A stretch of DNA of 62,759 nucleotides, filler included, from Asterionella formosa (lineage: Eukaryota): NCBI GenBank assembly GCA_002256025.1. It is 18 parts of 18 records of this genome, joined end to end, with 100 filler letters (N's around TTAATTAATTAA, not from the genome) between each part and the next. Parts side by side here need not be neighbours in the genome. Positions count along the whole stretch, not along the records: positions 8,151 to 28,615 come from NKIB01003353.1; 17 more parts are not named here. One strand, 5' to 3'. Position numbers and translations under genes: made by a program. Positions 2,621-28,615 of this stretch are shown piece by piece; the first letter of the stretch is position 1; each line of letters begins with the position of its first letter. The notes under the pieces are model-generated. The model ran no database searches. It was given only the letters and a program-made list of their open reading frames with translations, and was not told the DNA's origin.

Positions 2621-2722
2621 NNNNNNNNNNNNNNNNNNNNNNNNNNNNNNNNNNNNNNNNNNNNTTAATTAATTAANNNNNNNNNNNNNNNNNNNNNNNN
2701 NNNNNNNNNNNNNNNNNNNNCG

Positions 2723-6163: not shown

Positions 6164-6345
6164 AAGACATTCCATTAGAAATGAAGACGGGGATTTTGCG
6201 AAACCAGAAACCGAGGGCTCCTTGAGGTCTATTTTCTAGAACCAATTAACAAAAATCTTTAAACTGCTTAAAACCAGCAATTAGTCTTAGCACCAGGTTA
6301 TTTCTCACTGAAACACGATTTGTCAGGAATGATCCGAATCCATGT

Positions 6346-6690: not shown

Positions 6691-6791
6691 TNNNNNNNNN
6701 NNNNNNNNNNNNNNNNNNNNNNNNNNNNNNNNNNNTTAATTAATTAANNNNNNNNNNNNNNNNNNNNNNNNNNNNNNNNNNNNNNNNNNNN

Positions 6792-8050
6792 AATGTGTTT
6801 GTTTACGAGTTGGTTGGCGAGATTGTTATGCTGTTGGTCGACGAAACGGATTTACTATGTGCGCTTTGTGCGGAAGCATTCCGAGTTCGAATGATGTCTT
6901 CTCTGTTAACTCTTAATTGAATGATTATGAACATAGGTTCACTGCACATGACGATTACTCAAAGATATAATGATCACTTGACCAACAATTCAAGACATTT
7001 TCGCAAACAATCTTTCCAATTGTTATCGCTTGTATTTCGTCATTGCTGCAAAAATCGTTGTGAATACTGATGATGATGAGCCAAAGAATATTACGTTAGC
7101 TGGTACATTATCCTACCAAGAAATTTAAATAAAGGAACCTATTAGAAACATTTACATATAATAATAAAATATACAGAGTCAAAAGGGTTACCATTTAAAT
7201 TAAAAGGGCATTCATCAAAATTATTAGATGATATAACGAAAAATTATGATCAGATGATCACAATCCTAGGATGCATCATGGGAATATGATGGGTTTTTTT
7301 GCGGACGTACCTATAACGGTTTCGTGTGAAGTTTTCACAATGAACTTTGAACTCGAAAATGAATTAGTTGATGCATGTTTCAAATCATTGCTCTCGCGGA
7401 TAATTCATTTATGACTTGCATCTTCATTTGTTAATTTGGAATGATATTTTTTGTGTCTTTTTTCTTGCTTGGACAATCTACAGTTTATGTTAAATCATAT
7501 GAACTATTGTAGTGAACAAGATTAATCTTCCTGGTTTTCATATGATGGTTCACAATCATACAGTGAATTCCAAGACATATCTATTTGATATTACAACCAA
7601 TTATTTTAAAAGTTCATGATGACATATTTTTAGAGGATAAATTGTTGCGAAAGACAACTTTAATTTAGGGGAAGTACAATATTTATGGCGTCGATGTACC
7701 AAGCAAGCCTCCTCTATTGGTTTATAGATATGTTCATTGTCACTATAAAATTCAAAAATTTAATTTTGCAAATATCATCAGTTGTTATCCCTCACCAGTA
7801 AACCAATATATTCCAAATGTATCATGTTGACGTTTATAACATATGCCAAGAAGGTATGATGAAACGCCCAATAAATGACAAGGATACATGCATAGAACAG
7901 CATTTTCGCCATTCTCATGTAAAAAATTGACGCAACCATGTACATCATCGCTATAGGCAGCACCATCAGGAAATGCGCATTGTCAATGCAAGATACTAAA
8001 ATGTTTTGCATAAATTATTCATTTGTTATCCCTCACCAGTAAACCAACAT
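6792..8050. repeat. Second copy or allele of 1..1260
   Basis: Collinear, about 2% divergent, identical ends. Confidence 0.9.
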
Positions 8051-8318
8051 NNNNNNNNNNNNNNNNNNNNNNNNNNNNNNNNNNNNNNNNNNNNTTAATT
8101 AATTAANNNNNNNNNNNNNNNNNNNNNNNNNNNNNNNNNNNNNNNNNNNNGTATTAACTTGTGTAGACTCTACGACTTGGATCGTGATGGAAATTAATAT
8201 AAGCCAACCACATCACTTATTCGATTATTCGACCAGAATCATGACATGCACGAAATATTTCTGCATCATGAGGCAGCAGACGAAATGATTCTGTGAACAC
8301 TTCCGGCAAGCCGACAAC

Positions 8319-8645
8319 ATCAAGGCCAGAACTGCCTGAGCCTTTAGCATTCAGCTTGATAATCGCTCCACAACAAGCATGCAAGTTGCAGCTTCGACTT
8401 TTGAAATAGATCTCAGGACAAGGATATCGCCATCGCAAATGTCATTGGCATCGCTCGTGTTGTTGTTGATTGTTGTTTCATGATGGTGACCGGTAAGAAT
8501 ACAATTATAGTAAATTCATTAATAAATAGCTAGAATACAATAATATGCTGTTATTTTTTCTGTAGACATAAAATATTTGGGGGTGTTGTGCCAGATGTAC
8601 GAAGGGGGGTACAGGTATCTGGGGGGATACGAGACACCAGGTTTT
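8319..8645. repeat. Dispersed repeat (probable transposon segment), also at 57429..57753
   Basis: ATCAAGGCCAGAACTGCCTGAGCC...GGGGATACGAGACACCAGGTTT is shared at high identity. Confidence 0.85.
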
Positions 8646-8867
8646 ACGGGGGGGGGTACATCGTTTGATTACCGGTAGGTATACCGGGAACATACCTGTC
8701 CTGCATGTTCGGACAAATATTCGTAATATTCGGACTTTCCCGTTACTTAACATGCACACAATAAGGCGAGTTAATAGACAGCAGTGCATCAATGTGTCAA
8801 TGCACCCCGTCACACCGCCCACTGGTGCAATAGCAAAAGTATCTCAATCCAGAGTGTTTATGCCTGT

Positions 8868-10286
8868 ATGCGATTGCCTAATCACAACCATAACTTCACT
8901 TATGATCAGCTTGGATATGTAGATGCAGCAGCGCACGATAATGATAGCGGGTTAGTCAGTATGTGGGACTATGTGAATGCAGTAATAGAGAAAAGTTCGA
9001 ATCTTTACGAAGCGCTTTTGGATTTTTGGCCGGACAAAGACAATCCTTATAATAGTGACGATGATCTGGCGGGAATTCATGCACTATCTTCTCAAATAAA
9101 GGCGCAATTTGTATTTAATCCGCTTTTTTTTCAAAAAATTGTTCATCTTGCGCGACAATTACCGGTTCATTTTCCACTTGGTGAAATTCCTAAATTAACG
9201 AGTGGCGTCGCTTCAGCAATTACGTTTTCTCGAAGCCAAGCAGCGAGTGTCGTATGTCATATGATGTTATGCACCGTGACCAATCAGAAAACAGGACTTG
9301 AGCAACAACAACATTGGAATGGTTGGTGGGCTAATTTTGGACCCTGGTTTTATCGACATACTCAGCCAACAGAAACCTATGCAACAGCGTTATTTCATTA
9401 CGTGGATCAAATCAATGATTTTCACCCTGATGTTCTCAACGCACCGATTAAATTTACTCGTCTGGTACAAGAGCCCTTCAATGATTGGCATGCAGATGAT
9501 TCCTTCCTCAAGGTAGTTGAAATTCTCCAACAAGACCCCCAGCTGGCTGCACTTGAGCAACCAGGCGTTGTGGAATCAAGTTTTGCCAATAAAGACGTAG
9601 GTTTTGGTATTTCTGGTACTCAAGAAGAGCGGCTAATGGGCATGTCGCCAGAACTCTGTTTAGCGATGCTGTTGTCGCCCAGCTTAGCGGATAACGAAGG
9701 TTTGTTGATTGAAGGGGCGATGCCTGCGGGGATCTGTCGCGGTTTTGGTCGTGGTATTGAATGGGTTGGTTGCTTACCGGATACCGCGAGACAAATAGGC
9801 TGGCAGCAGCGAACCGTGTTGGTGCTAGATGCCTTGGAGCTTGATGAATATCAGGCAGATGAAGAAAATGCAGATAATACAGCGAGCGCTGTACCGTTTC
9901 CTGATTTCCATCCTGAGGCCATGGATCGAGAGCTGAATAAATTATTTTGTGGACTGTCGGCGGTGAGTGGTCGCAAGTTATTGACTGGACATTGGGGTTG
10001 TGGTGCTTTTGGTGGTAACAGTGAAGTCAAGGCTTTGTTGCAAATGATTGCGGCAGCACGCGCCAATGTGCAGTTGGCATTTTATGATGTGCCAGAGGAC
10101 GGCTCTCCTTCACCCTCGGTAGCTACTTTTGGTCAAAAACTCTCAGATTTTTCCGAAAGCTTGCATCGCCATGAGGTTTCGAGTGGGGTCTTATATCAAT
10201 CATTGCAAGATTTGCGATTAACTGATTTTAAGACTGGTGAAGGCGTATTTGATATTCTAAGGCAACGTTTATTTTCTTCAGATTAG
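8868..10286 (+). CDS. PARG: Poly(ADP-ribose) glycohydrolase (PARG macrodomain family), intronless, ~472 aa from first ATG
   Basis: SFANKDVGFGISGTQEE (catalytic QEE loop), SPELC, VLDAL, MDRELNKLFCG and TGHWGCGAFGG. The ORF track starts at a GTG at 8784; the first in-frame ATG is at 8868. Confidence 0.88.
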   Translation: MRLPNHNHNFTYDQLGYVDAAAHDNDSGLVSMWDYVNAVIEKSSNLYEALLDFWPDKDNPYNSDDDLAGIHALSSQIKAQFVFNPLFFQKIVHLARQLPVHFPLGEIPKLTSGVASAITFSRSQAASVVCHMMLCTVTNQKTGLEQQQHWNGWWANFGPWFYRHTQPTETYATALFHYVDQINDFHPDVLNAPIKFTRLVQEPFNDWHADDSFLKVVEILQQDPQLAALEQPGVVESSFANKDVGFGISGTQEERLMGMSPELCLAMLLSPSLADNEGLLIEGAMPAGICRGFGRGIEWVGCLPDTARQIGWQQRTVLVLDALELDEYQADEENADNTASAVPFPDFHPEAMDRELNKLFCGLSAVSGRKLLTGHWGCGAFGGNSEVKALLQMIAAARANVQLAFYDVPEDGSPSPSVATFGQKLSDFSESLHRHEVSSGVLYQSLQDLRLTDFKTGEGVFDILRQRLFSSD

Positions 10287-10294
10287 GACCTAAC

Positions 10295-10433
10295 TACCCA
10301 TCGACCTTTCCCACTGATTGAAATTCTAACGCTATGCTTGTTGAAAACACCTATAAAAATCTGAGGAGGTAAACTGGCTGGTGCCTTGGTCAGTATTAAA
10401 AATTTCTGGTATTCTCTATTTCCATAACGCTAC
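10295..10433 (-). pseudogene. Remnant of a bacterial IS3-family transposase (rve/DDE core)
   Basis: Manual translation VALWK*RIPEIFNTDQGTSQFTSSDF/IGVFNKHSVRISISGKGRWV, with one stop and one frameshift, resembles the IS3-type pattern PEIFNTDQGSQFTS...ISMDGKGRW. Confidence 0.75.
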
Positions 10434-11099
10434 CCAAACGACATTGGCCTTGAAAGAGGCTGGATGATTTGACATGCATGACTCATATACTGACTCTCCT
10501 AAAGCCTAAATGAGTAGTTTAACATCCTGTCCTTTTTTAAGACTACCTCTAGTATTAAGAGATCCCAATGTTGCAAGGCAAAAATTTTAGAGTCTAGGCT
10601 TTCGTCTGTTTTACTTACTTTCACTTTTCTTAAATTCGAATTACAGAACCTTTTGGAGCTTTAATGAAGAAAGATGAAACTTCTGGCAAGGCAAGTTATT
10701 TGGTCTTCACCAATGGCTTAGATTAGCAAAATAATCAACTTGCTGATTCAATTCACGGCATTAACCCTTTCCGCCTTGAATCGGCGACGCAATTCGAATG
10801 TGATCTGATTGGTGGTGGGTCAGCAATTGGTTACCATGAGATGGCAAAACCAAGGATGCACGATGCAGGAATTAACTTCATCTAGCAACTACTATTATGA
10901 AGTATCCAAAATCAGTGCCAATGCCAGCCTTATGAAAATGATGGGGCACAAAAAACATTTTATGTTCCTCTTAATAAGTGGTCAGCTTATTGTGAGGAGC
11001 ACTTTTTTATTACTAGGAGATCGCACTGCAAAGTCAATGAGATTATTTCGATATAACTGCGCTTAAACACCTGAACCTCCAACTCACCATGGTATTCAC

Positions 11100-12260
11100 C
11101 ATGAGAATTGCTTGCGTTTGTTTACAGGAGCAAATCTCATCCAGGCGGATGATAGCTAATTAAGATGTCGTCGTTGTTGCTAGTCTAGAAACAGCTAATA
11201 CTGGATAGAGGAACAAGAAGAGAATATACAAATTAATTCGATTTCAGGAAAAAGATACAGTATGTTGAAAGATTCTCCAGCTTCAGAAATTGGGAAACTC
11301 AAAAACAGCCACCTATTTGTGGGCATCATACTTTTTAGTGATGGATCGCTCCACGATTGACAAAATGCAAAAAAAATCTTCACATCCATGATTGCTAATA
11401 ACAATGCTCAATTTGTCTATTGAATGCAGGAACAAGGCGATGGAAGCATGGCAGTGGGTGTCGCTGTTACCTGAAGTAGAAGTTAGCAACTTGGAAAAAA
11501 TTCCAAATCTATCAGATTTGAGCAAAGAACGTTTAGCCCAATATCACAACCGATCCAATATGCGACAAAAGACAAATATCACAAAACACCATCATTCCGG
11601 CAATTATGTACCACTATTTCGGTGGTGATGTACAGGGTGTCCATGGTGCTTCACCTTTCGAAACCTTACACCAATTTTTAAACGGAATAATGCCATACAT
11701 TCTAGAGTCACTGTACAAGAATTACAGATCTGTTAATGACCTTTGGAAACAATTCTTCATCAAACGAGCATGGCCAGATGTACCTGAACAAGAGACCAAT
11801 GGACAAACGGAAACATCCAAGAAGAAATTTTTTTACAGTAATTGTGAGGGGGAAATACCCGTTACTGTTGGTAATACTCGTTCACAACAAGAAAGGTACC
11901 TACATTGGCAACAGTCAAGACCAAAGTTGGAGAATCAATAGCATCACATCAATTTTTTCCAAAATTGATTTTGAAATGATAGCAAGATTGATCAATGGTC
12001 AACTAGAAAGACAAAGTGATCGCAGGAAATTCCAGGCTTATGTCTATTAACAATCTTCACCATGGCTGGCATGATGGGTCCCAAATTTCAAAAAGTTGAG
12101 TCATACTTTACTATATTATTATGGCTAAGTATTTCATTGAATGTCAATCTGAATATGGTACAATACACTGCTGTAGAGAGTATAGAAGTCATCCTAGGCA
12201 AACGAATTCGAAGATATCTTAGCTACTGTGACAAAAACAGTAACTGGAGAACAATGTGAA
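11100..12260 (+). mobile_element. Degenerate Plavaka-like transposase fragments
   Basis: FGGDVQGVHGASPFETLHQFLNGIMPY and LERQSDRRKF occur across shifted frames with many stops. Confidence 0.45.
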
Positions 12261-14559
12261 TTAACTGGATTCTTCTGTCGCATACCGTTTACCCAAGTTC
12301 CATGGAATGATTCATCACCCTCATTTGTTAAACAAATTTGGAACTCCTATTAACTTCTTTGGTGGTTTCCTAAAATCATTCTTGAAAGAGAAATTGAAAC
12401 GTCCATGTAGAAGAGCAAATGGTCATACACACCGTCTACAACACGATATATTATTGAAGAGTTGCCTATAAAGGAAGACAGTACATATTCACTTGCCAGG
12501 AAAGTTCTCTTCCCCAGTGATTGCGTTATTTCTCTGCTGCTATTGAAGTGAATTTGGAAAGTCGGAACGGTAATCAATACTAGCTACACTGCACCAGCAA
12601 ACCCACTTTTATGGGGAAATGTCATTAACTCGGATTGAACCGAATCACTCCTGGCGTCTGTTTGTTCGTTGAGAAACACCAAGAACATGACAGTCCATGA
12701 TCGCATGTTTTTTGCTACAGGAGATTTTCATAATTTCTCAAAATCGTTGTAAACTCTATCATGTTGAACGCCATCAAGAAGGACAGAATGATGGCTCACT
12801 CTCTGCATGGCCTCAGTAATACTAACCAAAGCACGTTCAAATTCTTTGTCAATTTTCTTGTTTTCGCTCTTCATGATCATGCCAATGGAATGATTTTAAG
12901 CTATGTTGAAGCATTTCACTAAGATATGTCAGCTTGCTTGGTATCACTTAGTAACATCGGAGATAACTCAAAATTTGGATTAAACTCCATTGCTGCAACT
13001 TTGTTAACCCACGAACCCACGATTTTTTTCAAACATATTCCATAACCGCATCTTCAGTTCCGAAATCTGTGGTATCGTCAGGAAATGACCATCAAATTCC
13101 ATTATTTGCATTAAATTTCATTCCCAAGAATGTATCCCAACCATCAATCGTTAACCATGCCTCATTTTGTTTCCCCGTAAACACCGTTTCTCCACTGTGC
13201 TGGTGTAACTGAAGTTATTATTCCATAAACTTCACAATCCTAAAGGTACCACATGACCAACTGCCATCCTTGGTTGGTTGGTAAATGACATCCACCACCA
13301 GCAATCTTAAACTAAAGTTTGCCATCAGCGTAATCTCGGATCCTTGGTTTCTCACCCAATGTTTTCAAAAAACTTTTGCGACATAGTGATCTAGCCTTCT
13401 TCCTGACTAATTTCCATTTGTCGAACTCTGTGTTCAACTTGACCACATTTTTTGATGGTATAATTTCTTTATTGACATCAAACCCTGGGCAAATTCGGTA
13501 TTTATGTGCAATCTTGTGAATGCATTTCGAATGACTTTTCAAACACACTCCATGTTCAGGATCACATACTTCAACTATGCCATCATATCTTGGATCAAAA
13601 CAATATAGAAGGCTGAATCAAATACTTGGCAATTCACGAAGAATGAACCACAGGACATGGATTCCACTCAACAAAATGATGGTGAAACAATATAAAGGGG
13701 ATTATTCAACTGTTCCAATTCCACACCATATGCCGAAACAGCAACATTAACCTTTCCCCGCACAGACTTTTCCACCACTTAATTAACTGATGTGTTTCTT
13801 TGTTTCTTAGCGGTTTTCGAAACCTTTCAATACATCCACATCCTTACTAGAAAAAAGGAGGTTGATGCCTCGACCTGTTCATTTACTTTCCTATCAGTTA
13901 CCCTAATAATTTTGTAATTCTTTGGAAAGCTATCGTGAATTGCTCATCTCCAGATTTGTAACATGATATCTGGATTTTCCTTTGCTGTACCTTTCTCTTT
14001 TGCTTTGGAACGGGATGACTGCTTAATATCAAGCAAATCGGAATCAATAGACTCTGTGGAGATAGAAACAAGATCTACCAGCTACACAAACCTGGCGATC
14101 TTCATTTCAAACTTTATCGTTGTTGTCAATTACCTGTGTAGATTTAGACGCAGAGACCACACAACATCGATGTTCTTCACTTGTTGGAATGACAGGAATG
14201 ACTTATTCCGTCGGCTGGTCAGGAAAGAATGCCGGTAAGGAAATATATGGGGATTATTAGAAACTCCCCAATAACAACGAAGCACTTCATCAACGTCATT
14301 GCTGGACACATCTTGACTAGCTACTGTTGTTGCTATACCAGTATGCCATTCCTCGATATTGAATGATGAATGCTAGTGGTATCAGGTATTCTGCATTCTT
14401 CTATTTTATACATAATACATACCTGACACTCTACTGGTCCAAGCAGGGTTCCATTTCCACCAATGTCCAGGCCGCCTTCCTCCTCTGACTGCAAGCCCTC
14501 CACCAGCGCCACTACTACCAATTCTACCACAGTACCCTCTCCCACATCGCAGGCACTGC

Positions 14560-16010
14560 CAATGTCATGGCTGATGATGATTGCAGCCGGCATTGGCACC
14601 TTTCGGATGCTCAACTAAACACGCACCCAACATCACCACTCTATTCGCCGCTCTCTTCGACCAGACTGGGATTTGACATCTTCAGCTCTTCTAATGGTGG
14701 TCCTTCTTGCCTCCTCTCTACCCGTTCACATCACCGCCATCCATGTCAAGAATCACCAAGATGACGACAAACCCTTCTTTAATTATCTTACTATACCCTG
14801 CCAGCCAAACTCAATATTCAGGCAGATGGTCTCACCCATCTAGCATATCATCAGCGTGCCCCCTCTCCCAGCCACTTGCTCATGTTCTCTCGCCTTTAGT
14901 CCCGCCTGCTACCCTTCTGATAGCAGGTCGCCCAGTTTCCTCCAATCTGGTCACGACTTCACTAACTTCTTACTAAAAACCTACTAAGCAAGAATATGCT
15001 TACTTTGAGTCTAAAGATGGTTGGACTTCTGCTGATTCAGACTCTATCGATTGACTCTCCTCTTCCAGCGCTTAGTACAAACATCTCTCTAATGGCATGA
15101 AACTTGCCTTGTTCAAATTACATAATGGCCAATGGCCAACAAATTATACCCTACACAGCCAGAAGGGGTCACTTACACTCACCATTATGTCCTCACTCAT
15201 TGCAACCCTTCCCTAGAAACTCATGATCATGTACTCTGCTGCCCAGCAGCTGTCATCTTCAGAGATTCGCAATGGACACCTATTGCTTCTTGCCATGACA
15301 CTTCAAACCACAATTCAGACACCACCACGACCCCACATTCCCTTAGCCATCCTCAGCACTCATGGACTTCAGTCCTGGGCCCCAGGGTGGAATGTCTCCT
15401 CACTCCCGGAGTGAGGAGACATTCCACCCCTGCCTCTGGCCCTTTCCTCCGCCTCCCCCTTCCGACGCACTCCAATTTTCTGCCTAAACTGCATTTATTC
15501 AACAATCTTCTATCGGTTGGAACCATTTACTTGCTTCTTAGGGGCCACATCACACTCACCCGCTGGTGCCAGGCCATGACCATATAGAATTATCAACATT
15601 TCCCAGACAAACCCTATGATGATCCAACCAGATGGTGCTTCTAGTAGTAATTGTATCAAAATTATTCAAACCCACTCCATGGCTGGCACAATGATGGAGA
15701 TCCTGCAATGACTTCATCCACCATGGCTGCTGGTGCCACCATCACAGCCCAGCAAGCAGCCCACCTAACCCACACCCTCATAACCGATGTCTCTACCGCC
15801 TATCACAATCAAATTTCCGTTCCAACTGATGAAAGGGGTCACTGCCCTTTGCTTTTGGTCTTCCTCTCTCCACTTGCCTCACACACTCCACCTCTGCAAT
15901 GACCACAGCATGGTTGGAGATGTGCGTACAAAGCAGGTCAAACCCATCTCACTCATCACCAACTCTGCCAAGACCAATGCCGGCAATGCTCTATTCGTCA
16001 ATAATTTCTA
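14560..16010 (+). mobile_element. Degenerate non-LTR retrotransposon (LINE) C-terminal region
   Basis: Frameshifted LFKLHNGQWPT, CNPSLETHDHVLCCP (CCHC-like finger) and QQSSIGWNHL..RGHI; C/A-rich strand. Confidence 0.55.
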
Positions 16011-16282
16011 AATCGATGCCTACTAGTACGGGAGATAAAGCAGATTTGGAGCTATTCACTTCAATTTTGCTTGTCAATGATACTTTTGGAAACACTGCCT
16101 ATCTTGTATGTGATATGCCAATTTGTATGTACGTGCTCGACTACCGGTATTCTATATCCACTATAGGGTATCTGCTGCTGACCAGGAGGACAGTAAGTAT
16201 GTATGCAATCAACAGTACAACACATTTGTACATATTTTCAGTATTTCCCTGGCACGACACACCACTGCGTTGATTTATGATA

Positions 16283-16355
16283 CAGTACCAGGTACCAGGT
16301 ACCAGGTACTTGGTACCAGGTACAGGTACAGGTACCTGATACGAGGTACCGGTGT
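16283..16355. repeat. (GTACCAG)n-type microsatellite upstream of the MYB gene
   Basis: cagtaccaggtaccaggtaccaggtacttggtaccaggtacaggtacaggtacc. Confidence 0.8.
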
Positions 16356-16820
16356 AAAGAATTATCACCAGAATAATCGATGCAGCCATCATACCACGTC
16401 ACACGTACACCAACGATGAATCATTCCAATATATTCAGACTTGTATATATTTGATGATAGATTCAAATTTAAAGTTTGAATCCATCCTATCCAAACCGAA
16501 GGACACTTTACTGTTACCTAATGATAGTGAGAGCGTATTTTACCGTTGACTCCCTTGTTTGATTCCTCTCACATCATTTGCTGTTTCTAAATGTGCTGTT
16601 GGATACCGCCTTTGTTGATCTCGTTGCTCCTCCGACCTCATTGACTTCCCATTTGTGAATAGCTACCTGCGTCTACTGCTGCTGCTGCTGTCACATCAAG
16701 GAAAGGTCAAGCAAGAGCCGTTGATTTGTCTGGAGCGTTGATTGAATAACGAACGGAAGAGAACATATTCTGATTTGATTCTGATTTTTCAATTCGAAAC
16801 TTCCCGTAGAATCAGTTTCC

Positions 16821-19318
16821 ATGGCGCCGCCGACAGCAAGCAATTCACACAAGCAACGAAGCAGCGGCGGACAGCCGCGGAGCCACAATGGCCACTCACG
16901 ACAGCCCATGCTGATGCCAATGCCTCCTCCTCAGCGAGGCATGTCACACCCTCCTTCCTACTCGTACTATTCCAAGTACCCTCCGCCTCCTCCGCACATG
17001 TATCCCATGCACATGATGCCTCATTACTCCAGACCTCCGCCTCCGCCGCTGCAGAAACCGATGAAAGCCAAGAGTAGCATGCCCAAACCAATCCATCCTT
17101 TGTCCAATAACAGCAGCAGCAGTAATATCAACAACAAGAACAGCAGCAATAGCCGCACTAGCTCGGGGGCTGCAACGAAGGAAGACCCTCCGTCTCCTTC
17201 TGTTGGAACTGTCACTGGAAAGCCTTCCCAGTCGTTTGGAAAGAAGCAAGGGACCAAGTGGACGCAAGAGGAGGTGAGTTTACTCTTTGTTAGTTTCATT
17301 CCCGAACTGTGCAAATATTGTGCTGATTCAGAAAATCTCTTCCCTGAATAGGACGATGCCCTACGTATGGCTGTAGACGAGCACGGAGCCAAGAACTGGA
17401 AACTCATTTCGATTCGGCTCCCAAATCGAACAGAAGTCCAATGTCTGCACAGGTGGCAGAAAGTCCTCAAGCCATCACTCGTCAAGGGGCCATGGACAAC
17501 AGATGAAGACCGTAAGGTTATGGAATTGGTCAAGAAATACGGGGCCAAAAAATGGTCCTTGATTGCCTCGAATCTGCCGGGTAGAATTGGAAAGCAGTGC
17601 CGGGAAAGGTGGCACAACCATTTAAATCCGGACATTTGCAAAGAAGCTTGGAAACTGGAAGAAGACCGAGCGATACTTGAAGCGCACACCACCCTCGGTA
17701 ATCGATGGGCTGAAATCGCAAAGCTGCTCCCCGGAAGGTATGTACAGAATGTCGTTGTTGTGAACATCAACTATTAACAGTAAATCTCATTCGACCCTAT
17801 TTCCTTGCTAAAACCAGAACCGACAATGCAATTAAGAATCACTGGAACTCATCAATGAGGAGAAAGATTGAAAAATTCCTGGCCAAGAAGCAAGGGGTAG
17901 ACGAGATAAACATAAGATACACAGATGATGGTAGGTTCGATTTCATGGGGGATATTGACGGTGTGCTGGCTGCAGTTCGGGGCAAGGACGGCATAACGAG
18001 AATTCGAACAGGGAAGAGTGGCCAGAAAACTCGGCGGCCATCAATCGAAAAATCGTCTAGCGATGACTCTCCATCTCATGGACATCCCAAATCGCGTCCA
18101 CACCACATGCACCCAACTTATCATCACGCAAGTATGTATATGCATCATCCCTATTATCCTCCAATTCCAATGCATGCGATGCCACGTGGAAAACCAAATG
18201 ACAACAAGGAGAATATGAAGCCTAAAGGAGAGCTAATGTCGAATCGTAGAATGCGCTCTGGGCCACCAACAGCGGGAAGACATGGCAGTAATTTTGCCCA
18301 TTCTCCTGGCAAAAGCAACAGAAATCACGAGGACCATGTTGGCTCGTCACCATTCTTTGGGATGAGTGTGACGCCTGGAAGCACTCTCAAAACTCCATTC
18401 AAAATGGACTCTGAACTGTCCAGCTACTTGGAAAGCAGCCGAAAAACAATGTTTGACTCGCCATGTAGCTCCTACAGCTCCTCTTCCAAATTGGATTTAA
18501 AAGGAATGACACCGTTGACTGATCTTAGACGTGCATTTGCGTCGACGCCCTTCAACGGAGAAGAAAACCAACTCTTTTCTCCAAGTGCAATGCGAAATGG
18601 TGATCTAAGCAAGACTCTCTTTGGAGATGACGAACCAAATCAACTTGATCCAGTGCTCAAAACACCAAAACCATCAACTCCAACTGTTATACGGTTCAGA
18701 ATAGGTGATGGCGATGACAGGTATGCTCATACTATCCGTCATGTTTCCATATCTCCTGTTTCACAGATCGCTTTGGCGGGACGACCAAAGACAACACTTC
18801 GGGATTCAAGTAAATTCCTTAATTTGTCGGCATCCTTTGCAGATGATAAGAAGAAGATGCCACCTCCCAGCATCGCTAAAGACAGTCGTGACGTTTTGCA
18901 AGCGAAGACCAGGGGAACAATATTCTTTGAGGATAAGGCAATGATCATGAAAGCTGAACCTCATACCCCCGCTGCGGACATTACACAGGTCACTCAAGAT
19001 GAGTCCTTCTCTGATGACTCTACTAGAGACATTGCTGCGCCAAGTCCTTTCGACACTTCTATAATTGGAATGACTCCAGCCACTGCCAGGTCCAAGGATG
19101 GATCCTTCTGGAGCCGAGAACTAGATTTCAGTCCAGCAGACCACTCCTTCACACCATTCAAATCCCCACCCGGCCCTCGAGTTAAACTGGACAACCTGGC
19201 TGCCAATTCAGAAACTTTTACTGCTTCGCTACTCACTGCAAGTAACTCCTCGCGACTTGTTTCCTCACCATCATGCAAGCGACGAAAGTTTGAGGTTATG
19301 AATTCTCCGGCCGAGTAG
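16821..19318 (+). CDS. MYB3R: R1R2R3 (3R) MYB transcription factor, 779 aa; exons 16821..17273, 17352..17737, 17818..19318
   Basis: Three MYB repeats (KWTQEEDDAL, KGPWTTDEDRKV...GKQCRERWHNHLNP, AWKLEED...GRTDNAIKNHWNS) are restored in frame by two GT-AG introns of 78 and 80 bp. Confidence 0.93.
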
Positions 19319-19489
19319 TGTGCCATCTATGGTGCGTTTGCTGCTACCTTTTTGTCCACGAATGTGACGACATTCGTTCATATGGTGGACTAAGATTGGC
19401 TATTTTAACTTAAACACAACATTTGAAAATACGCATATAAGGATTTTCTTCTCTCTAAATCAGTCCATGTGTCAATGCTTATTATTCGT

Positions 19490-20656
<1,167 letters not shown>

Positions 20657-20727
20657 CTACAGACAGCCAATGAGTGAATTTTATGCGGGGGCAGAGGAGG
20701 ATGCGATGAATACCGGGTATACGTATA

Positions 20728-21540: not shown

Positions 21541-21802
21541 ACCTGGAACTTGTATGATGTACGAGGTATCAGCTACCAGTTACCGCTACATAGCAGTGGC
21601 ATGGAACGAGGCCGGGATTTGCGATGTTTATAGTTTTGTTTCCTGTAGAGTCTGAACCGTCTTTTACGTACCTTCCTCTCAGGAATCCGCAGCGGTGTCA
21701 TCATAGTGGCGCTGCCAATGCCATCATTCATATATCCTTCCATTTCCGCTACGACTTGTGTCCTTCCTTGGACTCCTCCTTACTTCACTACATTGACACA
21801 TC

Positions 21803-24800
21803 ATGTCCGACCATGAAGACGACAATGACGATGAAGAAGATGGAGAACTGCTCGACGACGACAGCAGCAAAGAAGCAGGACCTGATGCTTCCATGAGCAA
21901 TAATAACAACAAGAAACGCAAGAAACCCAAAAACAAAAGCAAGCCAGTTCCATCCATGATCGACGATGCGGCTGAACTGTCCGGGGACGAGGGCGGATCA
22001 GACGAAGAAGAAGATGACGATGAGAATGAGAACGATTACGTTCGGGATGGATTCGTGGTGGACGAAGTTGACGACGACGACGACGATGAAGCAGTCCGGG
22101 TCAGACGAGACGACCTAGAAGACAGCGACGACGACGACGACATGGACGAGGAAGCTCCTCGGAAGAAAAGCCGCATTAGCAAAATGAGAGATGTGCAACT
22201 GTTAGATGATGACGATCTGGATCTAATCAACGAAGCCAGAGGTGGAGCAGATGGAGGCAAACGAGCTAGAGAGGAAGCAGCAGCGCTCAAGTTGCGAGAA
22301 GCAGCCCGACTGGTAAAGGCCAAGGATGCACACGATCTGCAAAAAGGACTCTTTTACGACTCGGAAGAAGAAGAGACAATGGAGAAGAGGAAACCGACCA
22401 AACAACTCAAGCAAAAGGTGCAACTGGAGAGGTACGACGAGGATGGCATGGATGACTTCATTGACGATGACATAGGGGATCAGGGGGAAATCATGGCGGG
22501 GTCCAAATATGAGACTACCGGTGGTGTCAGTGAAGCTCAAATGCAAGAAGCAAGCGACATATTCGGAACGGATTATCTTGACTTCATGCAAGGAGGGGAG
22601 GAGGACGACGAAGAATTCATACAAACCAACAAGTACAAGGAACGTGGCGTAGGTATTGACTATGGTGTCGCGGACTCGGACGAAGACTACGATGAGGACG
22701 ATGACTTGTTTGGAGACGATGAAGATGACCAGCAAAAAAAGGAATCACTCAAACTCAAACGTGAAAAGAGGGAAATGACCAAGGCAGAACGTCGCAGGGA
22801 AGTTAAACGCAAGAAGGCACAACAAGCAAAAGCGGAACTCAGGAAAAACTTTGAACCTGTGCAGCTGATTGAAAATTTTTGTACCGAACGAGACGATGAA
22901 ATTAGGATCAAAGATGCACCTGAACGCTATTTTGATTGGAAGACGCCCTTTCATGGTTCCGCAGATGATAAAGGGATTTCGGCAGAAGAAGAGGAAGAGG
23001 CCATGTGGATCATGAACAAGATTTCAGCGATCGCAACTGACTTTTTTTCGATACCACCATTAAAAGTGGGGGATAAACCGGCAGATGCCATCGAACGACA
23101 TCAACGTGAGACATTAGAGTCCATTGCACATGCCTTGCGTTACATGCACCGGGAAAAATTGGAACCTGCCTTCATCAAGCGATACAGAAAGGATTATGTC
23201 ACGTCCAAGTCTGTCAGGGACAATTTGTATGCCATCATGGATGAAGATGGCGAGTGGGACCGGATGGTGTCCAAGCGGGATGCTGTGGATGACATGTTAA
23301 CGAATTTGGTGGCTGCGAGCGAAAACGACGAAGCTAAGGGAGCGGAAGAACATGATGTCATCAAGTTAAAAGTGGATTTGGGTGTCGCCCAAGAAAAACT
23401 TGATGACGTTGTACAGCAAGAGATCCGGATAAAGGAGCAATTGCGTGAAGCTAGTAAGGATGATGAAGAGGATGACGATCTTTTTCAGGACGAAGACGAA
23501 GATGACGAGAAAAAGGAAATACAAGAAAAGGCAAAAGCTACTATCAAAGGCCATTTAGCAACGGTCCAAGAAATGCTCCAGGATCGCGCTCAGCGTGTGG
23601 CAGATCTCGCTCAAGCTCTGAAAAATGCGCAAGCCCGAACGGCAGTCTTTGACGATGGGCCGTCGTTTAACATTGCTAAGAAAATGTGCCATGCACAATT
23701 GTGGAATGCATTGGACTACAAACAGTACCTCATGGGGTTGACAGCCGAGCGACATGTTGATGATATGAAACAATATCTTGCGCTTCTTAAGGAAGGCAAT
23801 GACGCGATTCGCAAGAAGGAGGGAGGTGAGAGTCTCATTGATGACAAAAAACGAAGTAGATCCATGAATAATGATCTCTACCGTTCTCGCGTCTCTGAAG
23901 GGATGAGACCCATGGCATATGAATTCATGTTAGCTCCTTCCCGCGGTGGTATCAAACTTGAGGAGATGGCTACAAAGGGGCAATTCAGCTATGATCGAAC
24001 ACTTCCGGGTGAAGAAGGATCTAGTGATCCTTTGAAATGGGTTGCACCAGTGATTATAGACTCTCCCACAAAGTTCGCTAATGACAAGATTGGGAGTGGG
24101 GAGCTTGTTCAGATTTCTGCTGGAGATTCCGGAAATAGAGTCGACGACGATCCACTCAGTGGGTGTCGGTTTGTTGCTGCCATTGAACTAGCTTACGAGC
24201 CGCGGGTTCGGCGGCACTTGCGAACTATTTTCCGAGAAAAAGCGGTCCTGACGACACGACCAACGAAAAAGGGATTGGACACAATCGATGCCTTTCATGA
24301 ATACTATGGATTACACTTGATCAAAAATAAGCCAATCAAGGAACACTTTCCAATGGAAGGGAAAGAGATCGAAGCTAGGAAAGATCATCTAGGTCCTGAG
24401 GAACGCAGAGAGCTTGATCTTGAGATGAAGAAACGGGAGGAGGAAAGTTGTCTGCAGTTCCTTCGCATTGTGGAAGCCGAACACTTTGGTCACATTAATG
24501 TCCATGTCCATGTCCCATACCTCAAGACGAATCAAGATTCCTGGTTCAAGGAATCGAAAAAGGATTATTTGAACAGGGAAAACCAGGATCTGGCTCCATT
24601 CATGGCAGAACTAGAGAAGGTGTTCCTTCCTCTGGACGGGGACACTGAGGAATGGAATGAGGAACGCCGAAAGATCTTTCGCTTTGCTTTGATCAAGGTC
24701 CTTCTACCCGAATTCGAACGCGAAACTCGTCGTGAACTCCGCGAAGCTGCTACTATGGTTGGAGTTGCGGCTGCTGGCAATAACTTGAGAGTGATGGCAA

Positions 24801-27800
24801 TGGAAGGTGCTTACCGACCAACATCTCTCCTCCAAGATAATCGTTTCCTTGTTCCAACAGGCGACCTTTCATTGGTCGGAGTTTGCACATCAGCAGATGG
24901 GAAGGATGCGACATATCTAGCGTCTGTTACGGAGGCAGGTGCTTTAAGCGACCATGTTGCGATTCCTTCAGGAACAAGAATCGATAGCGATCAGATGCGA
25001 GAGAAAGTGATCAATTTCCTGATGACTACTCGTCCTTCTGCCGTGGTTGTGGGAACTAGCGGGGGGTTTACCAGTCGTATGCTTACCAGAAAGCTTGGTG
25101 AGATTGTTGCAGAGGCCGTTGAACGATGGAACAATAGGCTCATCCAAGGTCAGGATGAAGACGAAGAGGAGTTTGAAACTAGAGCAGCACAATTCCGGCG
25201 TATACACCCAAATTATGATCTTGACGACGATGAGCCTTGGAAGTGTAATGTCGACTTGGTCGACGATTCTGTGCCTCAGCTCTTTGGAAGGAGCGTTAGA
25301 AGTAAGAAGGAGTTCGCAGACATGGAAGTGAACTTGAAATGTGCTATTGCTATAGCTCGTCACGCTAAAGACCCTTTATCCGAGCTAGCGTATGCATGGA
25401 ATGTCGCCAGTGATTCTGGCATTTTTGGTACTGAGATGTTTTACTTGAACATCCATCCAATGCAGCGCTTGCTACCGCGGACAAAATTGCTTCGTCAGTA
25501 TGAGCGAGAGCTTTGCGAAGCCGTTGCTGAAGTCGGTGTAGATGTCAATGCATCATGCTCACATGATCACTTGCTAGGCCTATTGTCTTTTGTTTCTGGG
25601 CTTGGTCCAAGAAAGGCAGCAAATCTCAAGCAGAGCATTTCACGTATTGGCGGACTTGTCGGAAGTCGCCGGGACTTGCTTGCAAAACGTCTGATGGGAC
25701 CCACTGTTTATAATAACGCTGTGGCATTTCTTCGCATTAGAGATGTTGAAAAACTGGCGAGTCAATTTATCCATCCATTGGATGACACTCGTTTACATCC
25801 TGATGTTTATCATCGCAACAATTGGGCAGTTAAAATTGCTATTGATGCCCTTGAGCGGCTAGAGGGCGATGGTGGGAAGGGAGCCGATAAAGATTCCTTT
25901 GGAATCAAATGTCTTAGAGATGTCATTGCGAATTCCGGTAACGAAGTCGAGCGTCTGTTCAATGCAACCAAGAGCGAATGGGAGACACACTATGGACCTA
26001 CTTTTAACATTGCAGCGTGGGACCCAATTGTAAATGTACCCGCCGGACATTGGCGCGACAAAGTTGAGGAACTTGACCTTGAGGCATTTGCCAATATTAT
26101 TGAGCAAAATGGAATGGGCCTCTGGAACTCCCATCTTCAAATGATCAAGTGGGAGTTCCGGCTTCCATTCGAAGATCCTCGAAAGCCCATGGAGCCCATT
26201 ACGGGAGAAAAGCTGTTCCGTTTGGTAACAGGTGAGACTGACCAATCTCTCCGCCCTGGCAAGGAAGTAACTGGAAAGGTGGTAAAGAATGGTGATTTTG
26301 GGTCGCGTGTCAAACTTGAAGGTGAAATTCCTGCCTTTATCCCGTTGCGAAATCTTGCTGATGAACACGTGGAAACTGCAGAGGACATAGTCACTGTAGG
26401 AAGTGTCGTCACTGCCATCGTTACTGAAGTGAAGAAGGATCATATGTGCGTCGATATGAGTCTAAGAATGGAGGATTTTCGAAAGCCCCATACTTCTTGG
26501 GATCGACCTGCAAGTCTACCTCGACTCGACATGTTTTTTGACACTGGAGCTGCATCTAGGATTGAAGAAGAAAAGTTGAAAGAACGGGAGGCGCGCTTGT
26601 CATCACTTCAGCTTAGCCTTGGATTATTTAAGATGGATGATGATAGTGGGAAACGTCGTTCTGGTCGGGTCACCCGCCGCGCCTGTGCACACCCAGCTTT
26701 CAGAAATGCGAAGAACGACGAAGTAGACCGCGAACTTCGAGACGCGGGCGACTCCATGGTGGGCGAGGCTCTTATTCGCCCAAGCAGCAAATCTTCAGAT
26801 TCTTTGGCAATTCACTGGGTGGTGAAACCTGGGTGCATCAAGGTGATCGAAGTATCTGAAGAAGAGAAGGATAATGACGCCAGCATAGGCAATATTCTCA
26901 AGATCAAAAATGAAAGTTATGGCAGCATTGATGAAATGCTTGGACGATATATCGCTCCAATGAACGACCATGTTGAGTCACTTACTTCGCACCGAAAGTT
27001 TCTTGACTTTCCCGAAGACGAATTGGATGAGAAGATCAAGGAAGAAAAAAGGAAAAGCCCTGGTGGTATCTTTTACAACATTTGTTGGATGGAGATGCAT
27101 CCTGGTTATGCTTCGTTGCGTTTCATTCTCGGTAACAACCCACGAAGCCACCCGATTGGCATTACTCCCGAAGGTTTCGCCTGGGGCGCCAAAGTGTTCC
27201 CTAACCTTGACAAGTTGTTAAATGAATTCAAGAAGAACCCCCGAGGAGTTTCTAGCTCATCGAGCAGATCTACTCAGGGGTCTGTGATCAGTCGATCCAC
27301 CGTTCAGTCGACCATGCAGTCTAGCATGCAATCAGGTTTGCAGTCTAACATTCAGTCTAGCCGAGTTGGCGGGGAAGTCAATGCTCGACCTTCTCGGTGG
27401 GGTGCTCGGCCCCCTCCACCACCAGGAGCACCCCCAGCAGCCCCACCAGTATCCAACTCAGGGTGGGGAACAAGACCTCCAGTCCCCATTGCTGGTTATG
27501 GAGTGCCGCCTACTTTTGCTCCTCCGCCAACTCATCTTCCTCCTCTCCACAGTCTACCTCCTCGTGGTCCACCTACAGGATTACCCCCACCTCCCTTAGG
27601 CATGCCTCGTAAGTTTCTCATAAGTTTTTTGTGATGGAAATCTTGCATGTTTCTATGAATCTCACCCCTTTTCCTTTCAGCCCCTCGACCACCTCCTGGT
27701 ATGCCGCCTCCTGGAATGCCCCCACCTGGTATGCCCCCACCTGGTATGCCACCTCCTGGAATGCCTCCATCTGGTATGCCACCTCCCATGCCCAACTTTG

Positions 27801-27844
27801 GCATGCCACCTCCTCCAGGTCCACCACCTCCCTACAGATCGTGA
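21803..27844 (+). CDS. SPT6: Transcription elongation factor Spt6, ~1989 aa; exons 21803..27608 and 27681..27844
   Basis: Acidic N-terminus, YqgF/HhH core (GLGPRKA, HPLDDTRLHP), S1 domain and tandem SH2 (HPAFRN...GEALIRPSSK). Intron 27609..27680 (GTAAGT..TTTCAG) joins a PPPGM-repeat last exon. Confidence 0.95.
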
Positions 27845-27949
27845 GCATGATTACCCTGGGCAAGAACTTAGAATAGAGCAAAGAGCTTTAGCTATATAAG
27901 CTATGCTTGATTTGTTTGAGTGATAAATTATGTCTTTTTCCAACCAAAC

Positions 27950-28171
27950 ATGTTGAGGTATTTCACTGACTATTGACCAATAAATGTCACGAAACTGGAC
28001 AAAGAGGGATTGATAAATGCAGTTAAAGCATCTGTTAGTTTCTGTAGAAAGGAGAGAGCTACTTCAACCCCCATAGCTACAGTTTAAACTACTAAACTAA
28101 AAGTCAAGAGGAGTTCAAGCGCAATAGATTACATTTTAGCATGTGATTCTACTATGTTAAATCTTTAGCTA
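27950..28171 (+). repeat. Fragment homologous to the 3' part of the pogo-like element (47956..48186)
   Basis: Shared ATGTTGAGGTATTTCACTGA...CAGTTTAAACTACTAAACTA...GCATGTGATTCTAC...TTTAGCTA. Confidence 0.75.
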
Positions 28172-28615
28172 TGGGAGAGAGTATCTTAGAGCTCCAACCA
28201 ATGAGGACCTTGAGATGATTCTATGTTTAGAGAAGGGTTGGCGGGGGCTTCTTGGTTCATTGGACGTCATGCATTGGGAGTGGAAAAACTGTCCCAAAGC
28301 ACAAAGAGGAGCATTTCAAGGAAAAGATGGAGTGGCAACTATTGCTTTGGAAGCTGGTGTTGATTGTAGACTTTGGTTCTGGCATGAATGGTTTGGAATG
28401 CCTGGTGCAAACAATAATCTTAATATTTTGGATTGTTCTCCATTTTTCCATGATTTGTCAGCTGGAAGGACTCCAAAAGTAAGCTTTGCTTGCCATCAAC
28501 AACCAACAACACAATCTGGGGTATTATTTGGTTGATGGAATCTACCCAAATTGTCATATATTTGTCGAGACCATTTCAGAGCCACAAGGTCCAAAGCGGC
28601 ATTATTTCTCAATGC
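28170..28615 (+). mobile_element. PIF/Harbinger transposase fragment (frameshifted)
   Basis: EYLRAPT, GLLGSLDVMHWEWKNCP, LEAGVDCRLWFWH..FGMPGANNNLNILDCSP and YYLVDGIYP in a shifted frame. Confidence 0.9.

Follow-up and report, generated by a model that had tools for sequence, protein, structure and literature searches.

A transcribed PARG gene beside a dead IS3 fragment in the diatom Asterionella formosa: a probable bacterium-to-diatom transfer

Anatomy of the locus

The window, meaning the whole stretch of 62,759 nucleotides (filler included) that was analysed, comes from the Asterionella formosa assembly GCA_002256025.1 and consists of small contigs joined by N44-TTAATTAATTAA-N44 linkers, so that it resembles a set of unplaced contigs, a kind of bin in which contaminants often accumulate. 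The part of interest, 8151..20727, is gap-free, as the first-pass annotation of this DNA had stated: there is no N in it. Its features are as follows.

8319..8644, no strand assigned: dispersed host repeat upstream of the putatively transferred piece, with a 95.4% identical copy at 57429-57753
8770..10512, plus strand: unspliced polyA+ transcript with a 5′ leader, the PARG ORF and a 3′ UTR that holds the IS3 remnant (polyA RNA contigs)
8791..8862, plus strand: frameshifted relic of the N-terminal extension of the relatives P0002 and P0003 (tblastn)
8868..10286, plus strand: canonical PARG ORF of 472 aa (Pfam, human PARG alignment, fold match, dN/dS)
10295..10460, minus strand: internal fragment of IS3-family orfB, the DDE/rve region around NTDQGS, truncated at either end and broken by one stop and one frameshift
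16785..19318, plus strand: host MYB3R-like gene with introns 17272-17349 and 17736-17815 (Pfam, polyA RNA joints)
19490..20656, minus strand: host GDP-L-fucose synthase (GFUS) gene with intron 20205-20330 (Pfam Epimerase, 1e-35; RNA joint)

The MYB3R-like gene carries Myb_DNA-binding in three stretches (Pfam, 1.6e-40), and its joints at 17271/17350 and 17735/17816, both GT..AG, appear in two polyA RNA runs. The GFUS gene has a single joint at 20204/20331 (CT..AC, the gene being on the minus strand), also in two RNA runs, and its product is 90% identical to that of Fragilaria crotonensis and 88% to that of Thalassiosira pseudonana. Both genes had been called intron-containing from the sequence, and the RNA joints bear this out. 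From the GFUS identity to F. crotonensis and the RNA-confirmed introns in the two genes it follows that the host is a diatom. Little else was found around them. In 8151-16800, 72 of 80 ORFs of at least 45 aa were scanned (the other eight lie on or across the PARG ORF), and none gave a Pfam score above its curated cut-off; Rfam and tRNA scans found no RNA gene in 8151-20727. Upstream, the DNA data set X2 reaches a summed depth of about 6800 in 8151-8570, where single-copy DNA would stand at about 99. Joints of the form ‘8649 to 16285’ were considered as transposon ends and rejected, their matching sides being only 21-38 letters long; their source is a GTACCAG microsatellite at 16285-16350 together with GGTAC-rich DNA near 8600-8680.

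A canonical, eukaryote-type PARG

The PARG frame is open from stop to stop over 8784..10286, with its first ATG at 8868 and a TAG stop at 10284-10286. The 472-aa product exceeds the gathering cut-offs of both canonical PARG models, PARG_cat_C (PF05028; 1.3e-34, 120.1 bits against a cut-off of 26.3) and PARG_cat_N (PF20811; 2.1e-11, 44.5 bits against 25.6), and the same Pfam scan returned no bacterial-type (DUF2263-like) PARG family. Human PARG (4a0d) matches the protein with an E value of 1.2e-26, and the alignment includes both the catalytic QEE, encoded at 9621-9629, and the diphosphate loop GHWGCGAFGG, encoded at 9987-10016. The G-x-G-x-F-G-G of this loop is present (TGHWGCGAFGGN in the window aligned with TGNWGCGAFGGD in human), and the loop is near-invariant in an alignment of 11 sequences (A1). 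The canonical PARG catalytic signature is GGG-X6-8-QEE. The window protein has GFG-x4-QEE where the aligned human chain has GGG-x7-QEE, a loop three residues shorter; across the 11 sequences GFG is the consensus and QEE is nearly invariant, GFG being common to the whole subfamily.

The fold points the same way. An AlphaFold model (pLDDT 71.9, pTM 0.79) contains the macrodomain and the helical accessory domain, and in Foldseek it matches mouse and human PARG with a TMq of 0.72 (E 9e-24) and Tetrahymena PARG with a TMt of 0.74; matches to bacterial-type PARGs have a TMq of only 0.29-0.32 (E 1.7e-3 to 4.4e-3). With the solved canonical enzymes (human 4a0d/4b1h, mouse 4fc2, Tetrahymena 4epp), the protein thus shares both Pfam domains, a fold at TM 0.69-0.74, and the aligned QEE and GxWGCGAFGG loop. 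It differs in being only 18-24% identical to them, in lacking the long regulatory N-terminus, and in belonging to a rare clade that is at most 40% identical to anything else and includes a copy in a bacterial context. Bacterial-type PARGs (Thermomonospora curvata 3sih, Deinococcus radiodurans 5zdc) would be expected to share the macrodomain core and the chemistry with it; both kinds of enzyme occur in bacteria. Their fold match to the window protein is weak (TMq about 0.3, E about 2e-3), and the helical PARG_cat_N domain, shared by the window protein and the canonical PARGs, sets it apart from them. Membership of the bacterial type is ruled out on these two grounds, and the window PARG is a canonical eukaryote-type enzyme. 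If translated, it would be expected from its sequence to cleave the ribose-ribose bonds of poly(ADP-ribose).

A dead IS3 fragment next to the stop codon

The first-pass annotation had placed an opposite-strand remnant about 10 bp past the PARG stop and had read it as an IS3-family transposase. On both counts it was right. The remnant spans about 166 nt, 9 nt separate its edge from the PARG stop, and both minus-strand peptides are as reported, PEIFNTDQGTSQFTSSDF at 10409..10356 and IGVFNKHSVRISISGKGRWV at 10354..10295, the reading frame shifting by one base from one to the other and an in-frame stop directly preceding RIPEIF. A 27-aa piece of it matched 1548 plasmid records (tblastn over 7.3 Gb, best E 7e-3), and where an annotated feature lay beneath a match it was an IS3 transposase. 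All five IS3 references tried match 10460..10295 collinearly (tblastx, E 1e-3 to 1e-6); the best score is 31.3 bits against a shuffle maximum of 23.5, none of 40 shuffles reaching the real score. The match exceeds chance.

In intact elements such as ISKpn11 and the IS3 elements of the loci L002 and L008, the orfB segment ...ALxxxGxPEIFNTDQGSQFTSxxF...ISMDGRGRW aligns with the remnant. Whereas orfB has about 290 codons, some 55 are left here, interrupted by the stop and the frameshift; the orfA, the first D and the E of the triad, and the ends of the element are missing, and nothing of the triad survives except the region of the second Asp (NTDQG). Whole IS3 elements gave no orfA-like tblastx match in 10287-11600, no matching terminal inverted repeats were found, and with the five references no IS sequence was detected past 10469. 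Against plasmids, the DNA of 10287-10700 had no blastn match, and a 48-aa frame piece at 10286-10429 returned neither rve nor any other Pfam family at E values up to 1. The remnant is a dead fragment, not a mobile element. One plus-strand tblastx match (E 0.096) hinted at a further IS3 piece, at 10857-10937. This candidate was rejected; it lies in an 85-aa ORF (10809-11066) that has no plasmid match at E values up to 10.

An unspliced, polyadenylated transcript

Eukaryotic-style expression of the gene is seen in polyA libraries of two different studies, X13 and X10. One contig (X13 record 8) covers 8770..10512 in 1740 nt with 0 mismatches, and another (X10 record 2) covers 8770..10478; the 5′ ends are identical and the 3′ ends lie 34 nt apart. 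No RNA splice joint is listed inside 8770..10512, and the same PARG protein is encoded by JGI contigs of 1.6-1.84 kb. Together with the Pfam score and the fold match, this unspliced transcript of about 1.7 kb bears out the earlier call of an intronless 472-aa PARG ORF ending at 10286. RNA depth in X13 is 105.9 for PARG and 91.9 for GFUS; in both runs it drops to 0 across 10671-11510 and does not exceed 6.6 in the remainder up to 16130. As the mRNA ends near 10480-10510, the IS3 relic is part of its 3′ UTR.

The leader also carries a trace of the gene's past. Residues 35-57 of the relative P0003 match 8791..8862 in frame 2, the ORF being in frame 1 (tblastn, E 0.006). This relic of an N-terminal extension, 24 codons long with one lesion, is therefore now part of the leader. 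Three out-of-frame ATGs (8792, 8800, 8860) precede the PARG start, and a 40-codon uORF overlaps it.

Relatives of the gene

The closest relative of known context is carried by L001, a 3.8-kb metagenome contig that also holds a tRNA-Met and a gammaproteobacterial UbiB C-terminus (NF003404, 2.9e-50), the best named relatives of this UbiB being those of Ketobacter and Pseudomonadales at about 50%. Its PARG is 83% identical to the window copy in protein and 84.6% over 1202 nt of DNA, with a dN/dS of 0.21 over 400 codons, and the homology between the two sequences ends at 10277-10283, that is, at the end of the PARG ORF. Both belong to a clade of five members (SH-aLRT 100) on a stem of 1.52 substitutions per site, in which bacterial genomic context is established for one of the five, L001. 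Outside it, the closest of 1.84 billion representatives shows 40% identity. P0002 and P0003 keep the N-terminal extension in frame, and since only a frameshifted relic of it is left in the window, the window copy is derived. Among the cluster members, P0066, P0073, P0067 and P0069 have frameshifted C-termini or N-termini; these frameshifts fall in homopolymer runs and could stem from misassembly.

The first-pass annotation had named grouping with orthologous stramenopile PARGs as a sign against a transfer. The clade groups with no named eukaryote, in a tree whose references include no stramenopile PARG. Its nearest outgroups are eukaryote-type PARGs, and the deeper origin of the clade is therefore eukaryotic, which means that the direction of the transfer is read mainly from the IS3 relic. 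Base composition, too, had been proposed as a guide: GC3 is 0.367 in the window PARG, near the 0.341 of L001 and below the 0.43-0.60 of host genes, which speaks for the transfer.

Wider searches added few sequences. A single-protein scan of GTDB prokaryote genomes yielded 0 relatives among 28 pattern matches. A profile scan gave one locus among 31, L004, which is labelled a Puniceispirillum MAG and is 33% identical; it was rejected as a bacterial PARG, as its F-box/LRR neighbour, a 60S acidic ribosomal protein fragment and sparse ORFs make it look eukaryotic. Viral contigs held 0 PARG relatives among 35 pattern matches. In the Protein Atlas there were generic eukaryote PARG clusters and one cluster that is 58% bacterial, with no placement of the clade.

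Origin of the locus

A real, expressed transfer from a bacterium to the diatom is the best reading of these data, and we regard it as probable. The idea that a bacterial fragment had integrated here was raised in the first-pass annotation, and it is now supported by the bacterial kin of the gene, the IS3 match, a bridging DNA contig, DNA depth on a par with host sequence, and the polyA transcript. A bacterial DNA fragment of at least 1.67 kb (about 8791..10460 of the window) would have become part of the nuclear DNA of a freshwater diatom, its donor probably an undescribed gammaproteobacterium. The fragment would have carried a canonical-type PARG gene and an adjacent piece of IS3 transposase, probably already truncated. 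The diatom now transcribes it into a polyadenylated mRNA, unspliced and about 1.7 kb long, starting near 8770 and ending near 10480-10510, with the frameshifted relic of the donor's N-terminal extension in the 5′ leader; the encoded protein retains the catalytic Gln-Glu-Glu and the diphosphate-binding loop. The 84.6% DNA identity to the bacterial copy makes the transfer look young. From these observations we infer the direction of the transfer and, further, that the mRNA may be translated into an active enzyme that may benefit the diatom.

The eukaryotic ancestry of the clade can be accommodated by a round trip, which we offer tentatively, as a possibility that falls somewhat short of an even chance. 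A eukaryote-type PARG would have been captured by a gammaproteobacterium living with protists or diatoms, perhaps to act there as an effector that interferes with the PAR signalling of the host, and would later have been returned together with the IS3 fragment. The very long stem of the clade and the extra N-terminal extension would fit capture by a bacterium. The diatom PARG would then be an expressed, lineage-specific second PAR eraser whose 3′ UTR comes from bacterial transposase DNA.

Whether the gene is useful is a separate matter, and it is conceivable, though unlikely, that the transfer is real and the gene a transcribed relic: a recent arrival under a fortuitous promoter, making no useful enzyme and still open for lack of time. 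The three upstream AUGs and the overlapping uORF would fit such a relic, as would the frameshift loss of the donor's N-terminal extension, the frameshifted termini of four cluster members, and a GC3 that has not moved towards host values. Listed polymorphisms of the ORF within the diatom, three non-synonymous and two synonymous, also lean this way, although the only ORF indel among the variants listed is in frame (9303, 3 nt). The contrast between ORF and flanks among the variants listed is not significant (p 0.53 for substitutions, 0.08 with indels), and within-diatom polymorphism is uninformative on selection. Against the relic stand 472 codons free of stops and frameshifts, compared with two lesions in the 55-codon IS piece and one in the 24-codon extension relic; a terminal branch of 0.054 that is not longer than those of its kin (0.046-0.084); the shared 5′ end and closely spaced 3′ ends of the transcript in the two studies; and the homopolymer setting of the frameshifted cluster variants. 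The first-pass annotation had taken a decayed IS beside an open PARG as a sign of selection or of recent arrival. Recent arrival is favoured by the identity to L001; selection is not established by this contrast, because the IS piece may have been inactivated before it left the donor, so that decay on one side and an open frame on the other are by themselves no proof of it.

Contamination is a more familiar concern. In an assembly chimera, roughly 8657..11265 would come from a bacterium living with the diatom and would have been joined to host DNA at repeats. Such an artefact would suit a bin of unplaced contigs, the repeats that flank the piece (8151-8650 and 11091-11510) and the bacterial close relative. 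It would also suit the independent assemblies at the edges: among the independent contigs listed, none spans 11265 to 11572, extends across the left edge of the piece or reaches MYB3R from PARG. The contigs beginning at 8657 in X2 and X6 have 146 and 153 extra letters, respectively, that do not match the window, so that the left junction is tentative. The bulk of the evidence speaks against a chimera. An independent X2 contig (8657..11265) bridges the PARG, the IS remnant and 800 nt beyond, and those 800 nt contain no ORF or bacterial gene, unlike the gene density of bacterial DNA. In X2, seven pieces at 11572-14564 have depths of 86.6-105.9, and the PARG contig has 98.7. In X6, depth is 7.8-9.4 in neighbouring pieces, 8.32 in the MYB3R/GFUS contig and 5.9-6.1 in the PARG piece. 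The depth of the piece thus equals that of its neighbours in both metagenomes, which are unrelated and 16-fold apart in depth. Cover in X2 is nearly nil over 14871-16130 and 16551-20330, except for 118.9 in the bin 16971-17390; X6 covers both stretches, and as filters leave some records out, no weight is put on this difference. In eight DNA runs, 68-87% of the words that make up the 10-kb stretch from PARG to MYB3R are present. The transcript, moreover, stands at the level of a host gene in polyA-selected libraries and has sharp, monocistronic ends. The independent public data therefore show no contaminant join of the kind the first-pass annotation had wished to see checked, and a chimera is very unlikely.

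Still more improbable is a native gene or the opposite direction, with the clade a fast-evolving diatom PARG that the L001 bacterium acquired and the IS3 piece a separate event: canonical PARG is overwhelmingly eukaryotic, the outgroups are eukaryote-like and bacterial context is proven for a single clade member, but the PARG transcript includes the IS3 fragment as well, 9 nt past the stop codon, which would take two unlikely independent bacterial insertions at one spot, the PARG is intronless and both its neighbours are spliced, its GC3 is like that of the bacterial copy, its extension is a derived, frameshifted relic, and there is no named diatom protein among 60 matches (weak evidence, as only 8000 candidates were scored).

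Significance

Transfer from bacteria to diatoms is accepted, mostly on the basis of old, fully domesticated genes identified by phylogeny alone, and contamination is a constant worry. A literature search for PARG with diatoms, Phaeodactylum or HGT found nothing. Reported transfers include sing1 of Nitzschia (PMC11960938) and adhesive trail proteins (bioRxiv 10.1101/2023.03.06.531300). Such cases share with the present locus a bacterial-derived gene that lies in diatom nuclear DNA and is expressed; the window copy differs from them in retaining recognisable bacterial mobile DNA in its own transcript, in being 84.6% identical in DNA to a bacterial copy, and in carrying cargo from a typically eukaryotic family.

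The locus is a clean new example of a known phenomenon. On the reading of a real transfer, it is a young one that has left a physical trace: the polyadenylated transcript of the gene contains the dead remnant of an insertion sequence of a strictly prokaryotic kind. The early steps of domestication can be observed in it: the gain of a promoter next to a host repeat, the loss of the donor N-terminus, an unoptimised leader with upstream AUGs, and a codon usage not yet shifted to that of the host. It also indicates that canonical PARG circulates in environmental bacteria, which bears on how the erasers of ADP-ribosylation move between hosts and microbes.

Genomic context of the PARG locus

Most of the contigs chained together in the 62.8-kb window measure about 1.26 kb; two longer scaffolds reach about 20.5 kb. 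Contig joints are N44-TTAATTAATTAA-N44 linkers (e.g., 8051-8150) with stops in all six frames, so adjacent pieces have no physical linkage. Unplaced-contig bins of this kind attract contaminants, and the main question is therefore whether the gene for a poly(ADP-ribose) glycohydrolase (PARG) marks a real integration or a chimera. The PARG locus sits on a 12,577-nt piece without gaps, 8151..20727; beyond an 813-N gap comes 21541..28615. Features of the window are as follows.

8868..10286, plus strand, PARG ORF
10295..10460, minus strand, IS3 remnant (orfB fragment)
Downstream of PARG on the same piece, plus strand, three-repeat MYB (MYB3R; 1.6e-40)
Same piece as PARG, minus strand, GDP-L-fucose synthase (GFUS) ORF
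Next piece, 21541..28615, SPT6 (1945 aa)
28161-28532, plus strand, PIF/Harbinger-type transposase fragment (Plant_tran, 2.1e-32)
39675-40787, plus strand, protein kinase ORF (Pkinase, 2.5e-57)
55777-57327, minus strand, weak Copia-type reverse-transcriptase remnant (RVT_2, 9.6e-5, below cut-off)

The host of 8151..20727 is a diatom: its GFUS exon shares 90% identity with Fragilaria crotonensis and 86-91% with many other diatoms. Splicing in polyA RNA contigs (GT..AG introns at 17271/17350 and 17735/17816; another at 20204/20331 on the minus strand) bears out the first-pass annotation, which had placed PARG on one gap-free piece with intron-containing MYB3R and GFUS. A single 3746-nt contig from the polyA RNA run X10 spans both genes (16585-20614), so the 3' ends of the convergent MYB3R (+) and GFUS (-) meet or overlap.

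A canonical-type PARG beside an IS3 remnant

On the plus strand an open frame extends from 8784 to a TAG at 10284-10286, with its first ATG at 8868, giving 472 aa, as the first pass had estimated. Both canonical PARG catalytic halves are found by Pfam, each above cut-off (PF05028, 1.3e-34; PF20811, 2.1e-11). Human PARG is the best match among solved structures (E 1.2e-26), and the catalytic QEE and TGHWGCGAFGGN loop align with it, although GFG stands in place of the glycine triplet and the loop has three residues fewer. The AlphaFold model (pLDDT 71.9, pTM 0.79), for which 11 sequences were aligned, resembles mouse and human PARG (TMq 0.72) and Tetrahymena PARG (TMt 0.74) but matches bacterial-type PARGs at a TMq of only ~0.3, which makes this a canonical, eukaryote-type enzyme. 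The literature search found no paper on PARG in diatoms.

The neighbouring remnant had been read as a decayed IS3-family transposase about 10 bp past PARG, on the opposite strand, with a stop and a frameshift. Both of its minus-strand peptides (10409..10356 and 10354..10295) were confirmed, with a stop immediately before the first and a shift of frame by one base between the two; 9 nt separate the PARG stop from the end of the last matching codon. The family assignment also stands. A 27-aa piece matched 1548 plasmid records, with an IS3 transposase wherever a feature was listed, and by tblastx whole IS3 elements from five plasmids were all collinear over 10460..10295 (E 1e-3 to 1e-6), the best score being 31.3 bits, whereas 40 shuffles gave no more than 23.5. 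No IS sequence was found past 10469 with these five elements. Their match limits make the remnant about 55 mid-orfB codons, cut off on both sides.

Probable integration and expression in the diatom

Parts of the 10-kb stretch 8151..18150 occur in 20 public runs (13 studies), most of them labelled freshwater or lake water, and in eight DNA runs 68-87% of its words are present. Two DNA metagenomes (X2 and X6) and two polyA RNA runs (X10 and X13) were compared along 8151..20727. One X2 contig (depth 98.7) spans 8657-11265, covering PARG with the IS remnant and a further 800 nt without an ORF; seven more X2 pieces over 11572-14564 have depths of 86.6-105.9. In the unrelated and far shallower X6, PARG pieces lie at 5.9-6.1 against 7.8-9.4 for neighbouring pieces and 8.32 for a 6-kb contig with MYB3R and GFUS. 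The proposed check of depth against host genes thus places PARG near neighbouring host pieces in both samples. This counts against a bacterial contaminant, which is not expected to follow host depth twice.

No contig among the independent contigs listed crosses 11265-11572, where moderately repeated DNA starts. The X2 and X6 contigs starting at 8657 carry 146 and 153 further letters that do not match the window, so the left junction with the host repeat is without independent support. A second copy of this repeat (8319-8644), 95.4% identical, lies at 57429-57753. The dispersed repeat at 8151-8650 reaches ~70x single-copy depth in X2, matches no Pfam family and occurs in polyA RNA contigs (e.g., a 1158-nt X10 contig, minus strand). 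Apparent 8649-16285 'joints' were rejected as spurious, given a GTACCAG heptamer microsatellite (16285-16350) and GGTAC-rich DNA (8600-8680), both at very high summed metagenome depth.

PolyA RNA, another proposed check, contains the PARG transcript in two studies. The X13 transcriptome yields a 1740-nt contig (8770..10512, depth 105.9, 0 mismatches), and the X10 lake metatranscriptome a 1706-nt contig (8770..10478). Both share the start at 8770 and are unspliced, in agreement with the first-pass view of PARG as intronless. In X13, PARG depth resembles that of GFUS (91.9); in both runs RNA depth is 0 over 10671-11510 and at most 6.6 out to 16130. JGI members of the identical PARG cluster lie on contigs of 1.6-1.84 kb, the size of the transcript.

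Relatives of PARG and the direction of transfer

A word-indexed search gave 60 hits, including an identical cluster (15 members), P0002 (77%) and P0003 (86% over the first half), with none of the others above 37%; in an exhaustive search of 1.84 billion representatives, the next relative of full length was 40% identical. A tree of 61 rows places the window PARG with P0003, P0061, P0002 and the copy on the metagenome contig L001 (SH-aLRT 100). This five-member clade has a stem of 1.52 substitutions per site and terminal branches of 0.046-0.084 (window PARG, 0.054), and it falls among eukaryote-type PARGs without resolution of its position.

L001, a 3.8-kb contig, is the one clade member with fetched DNA. 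It shares 83% protein identity with the window and 84.6% over 1202 nt, and the homology ends at 10277-10283. Downstream of its PARG are:

1506-2297, 263-aa ORF directly downstream, with no Pfam or NCBIfam family and no counterpart within the window
tRNA-Met
UbiB C-terminal 197 aa (NF003404, 2.9e-50)

The best named relatives of this UbiB are gammaproteobacteria (Ketobacter, Pseudomonadales; ~50%), another relative reaching 75%, which marks L001 as a gammaproteobacterial contig. The locus L004, the only GTDB match, was rejected as a bacterial PARG. In this record, titled as a MAG of uncultured Candidatus Puniceispirillum sp. (2.5-Mb 'chromosome'; locus at 1-11263), the PARG has one in-frame TAG and 33% identity to the window copy. 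Around it are an F-box/LRR protein, a 60S acidic ribosomal protein fragment and few long ORFs, and the record resembles eukaryotic DNA deposited under a bacterial MAG label.

P0002 and P0003 have 45-57 extra N-terminal residues; 8791..8862 is homologous to this extension in a different frame (E 0.006), and the window copy has therefore lost it. Truncated relatives of this PARG clade are P0061 and P0068 (154-156 aa; their contigs reach 56.7 kb), which begin within the gene and break off early at ...LAFYSKISIV, and P0003 (293 aa), which stops early at ...VVALSYCQ. Decay of the gene may be under way in other genomes.

Several observations argue for a bacterial origin of the DNA. IS3 elements are prokaryotic, and a piece of one lies 9 nt from the PARG stop in the same transcript; PARG has no introns; and its N terminus is derived. 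Of the suggested codon-usage comparison, GC3 fits, the window PARG (0.367) being near the bacterial L001 copy (0.341) and below host genes (0.43-0.60).

Possible selection in the diatom

An open PARG beside a decayed IS had been taken as a sign of selection or recent arrival. The pattern is confirmed, with 0 lesions in 472 PARG codons versus two in the 55-codon IS piece and one in the N-extension relic, but the IS piece may have been dead already in the donor, which weakens the argument. Selection is favoured by the lesion-free ORF, by the sole ORF indel among the variants listed being in frame, and by a terminal branch without acceleration. Against it, the listed variants include at least three non-synonymous and at least two synonymous changes in the ORF, the ORF-flank contrast among them is not significant (p 0.53; with indels, 0.08), and three out-of-frame AUGs precede the ORF in the transcript, one a 40-codon uORF overlapping the start. 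Relative to L001 (dS 0.46, dN 0.096; 400 codons), a dN/dS of 0.21 reflects constraint along the combined path, not diatom-specific constraint. The odds that the protein is made and useful in the diatom are roughly even.

Taken with the IS3 piece, the L001 kinship, the depth and the polyA transcript, the best reading remains the one first proposed, a bacterial fragment integrated in the diatom. Quite probably this was a fairly recent transfer from a gammaproteobacterium-like donor of a canonical-type PARG and an IS3 fragment, now expressed as a polyadenylated mRNA. The boldest reading, in which a PAR eraser made a round trip from a eukaryote to a bacterium and on to a diatom, is tenable. As an instance of bacterium-to-diatom transfer, a known phenomenon, the locus is new and well marked.
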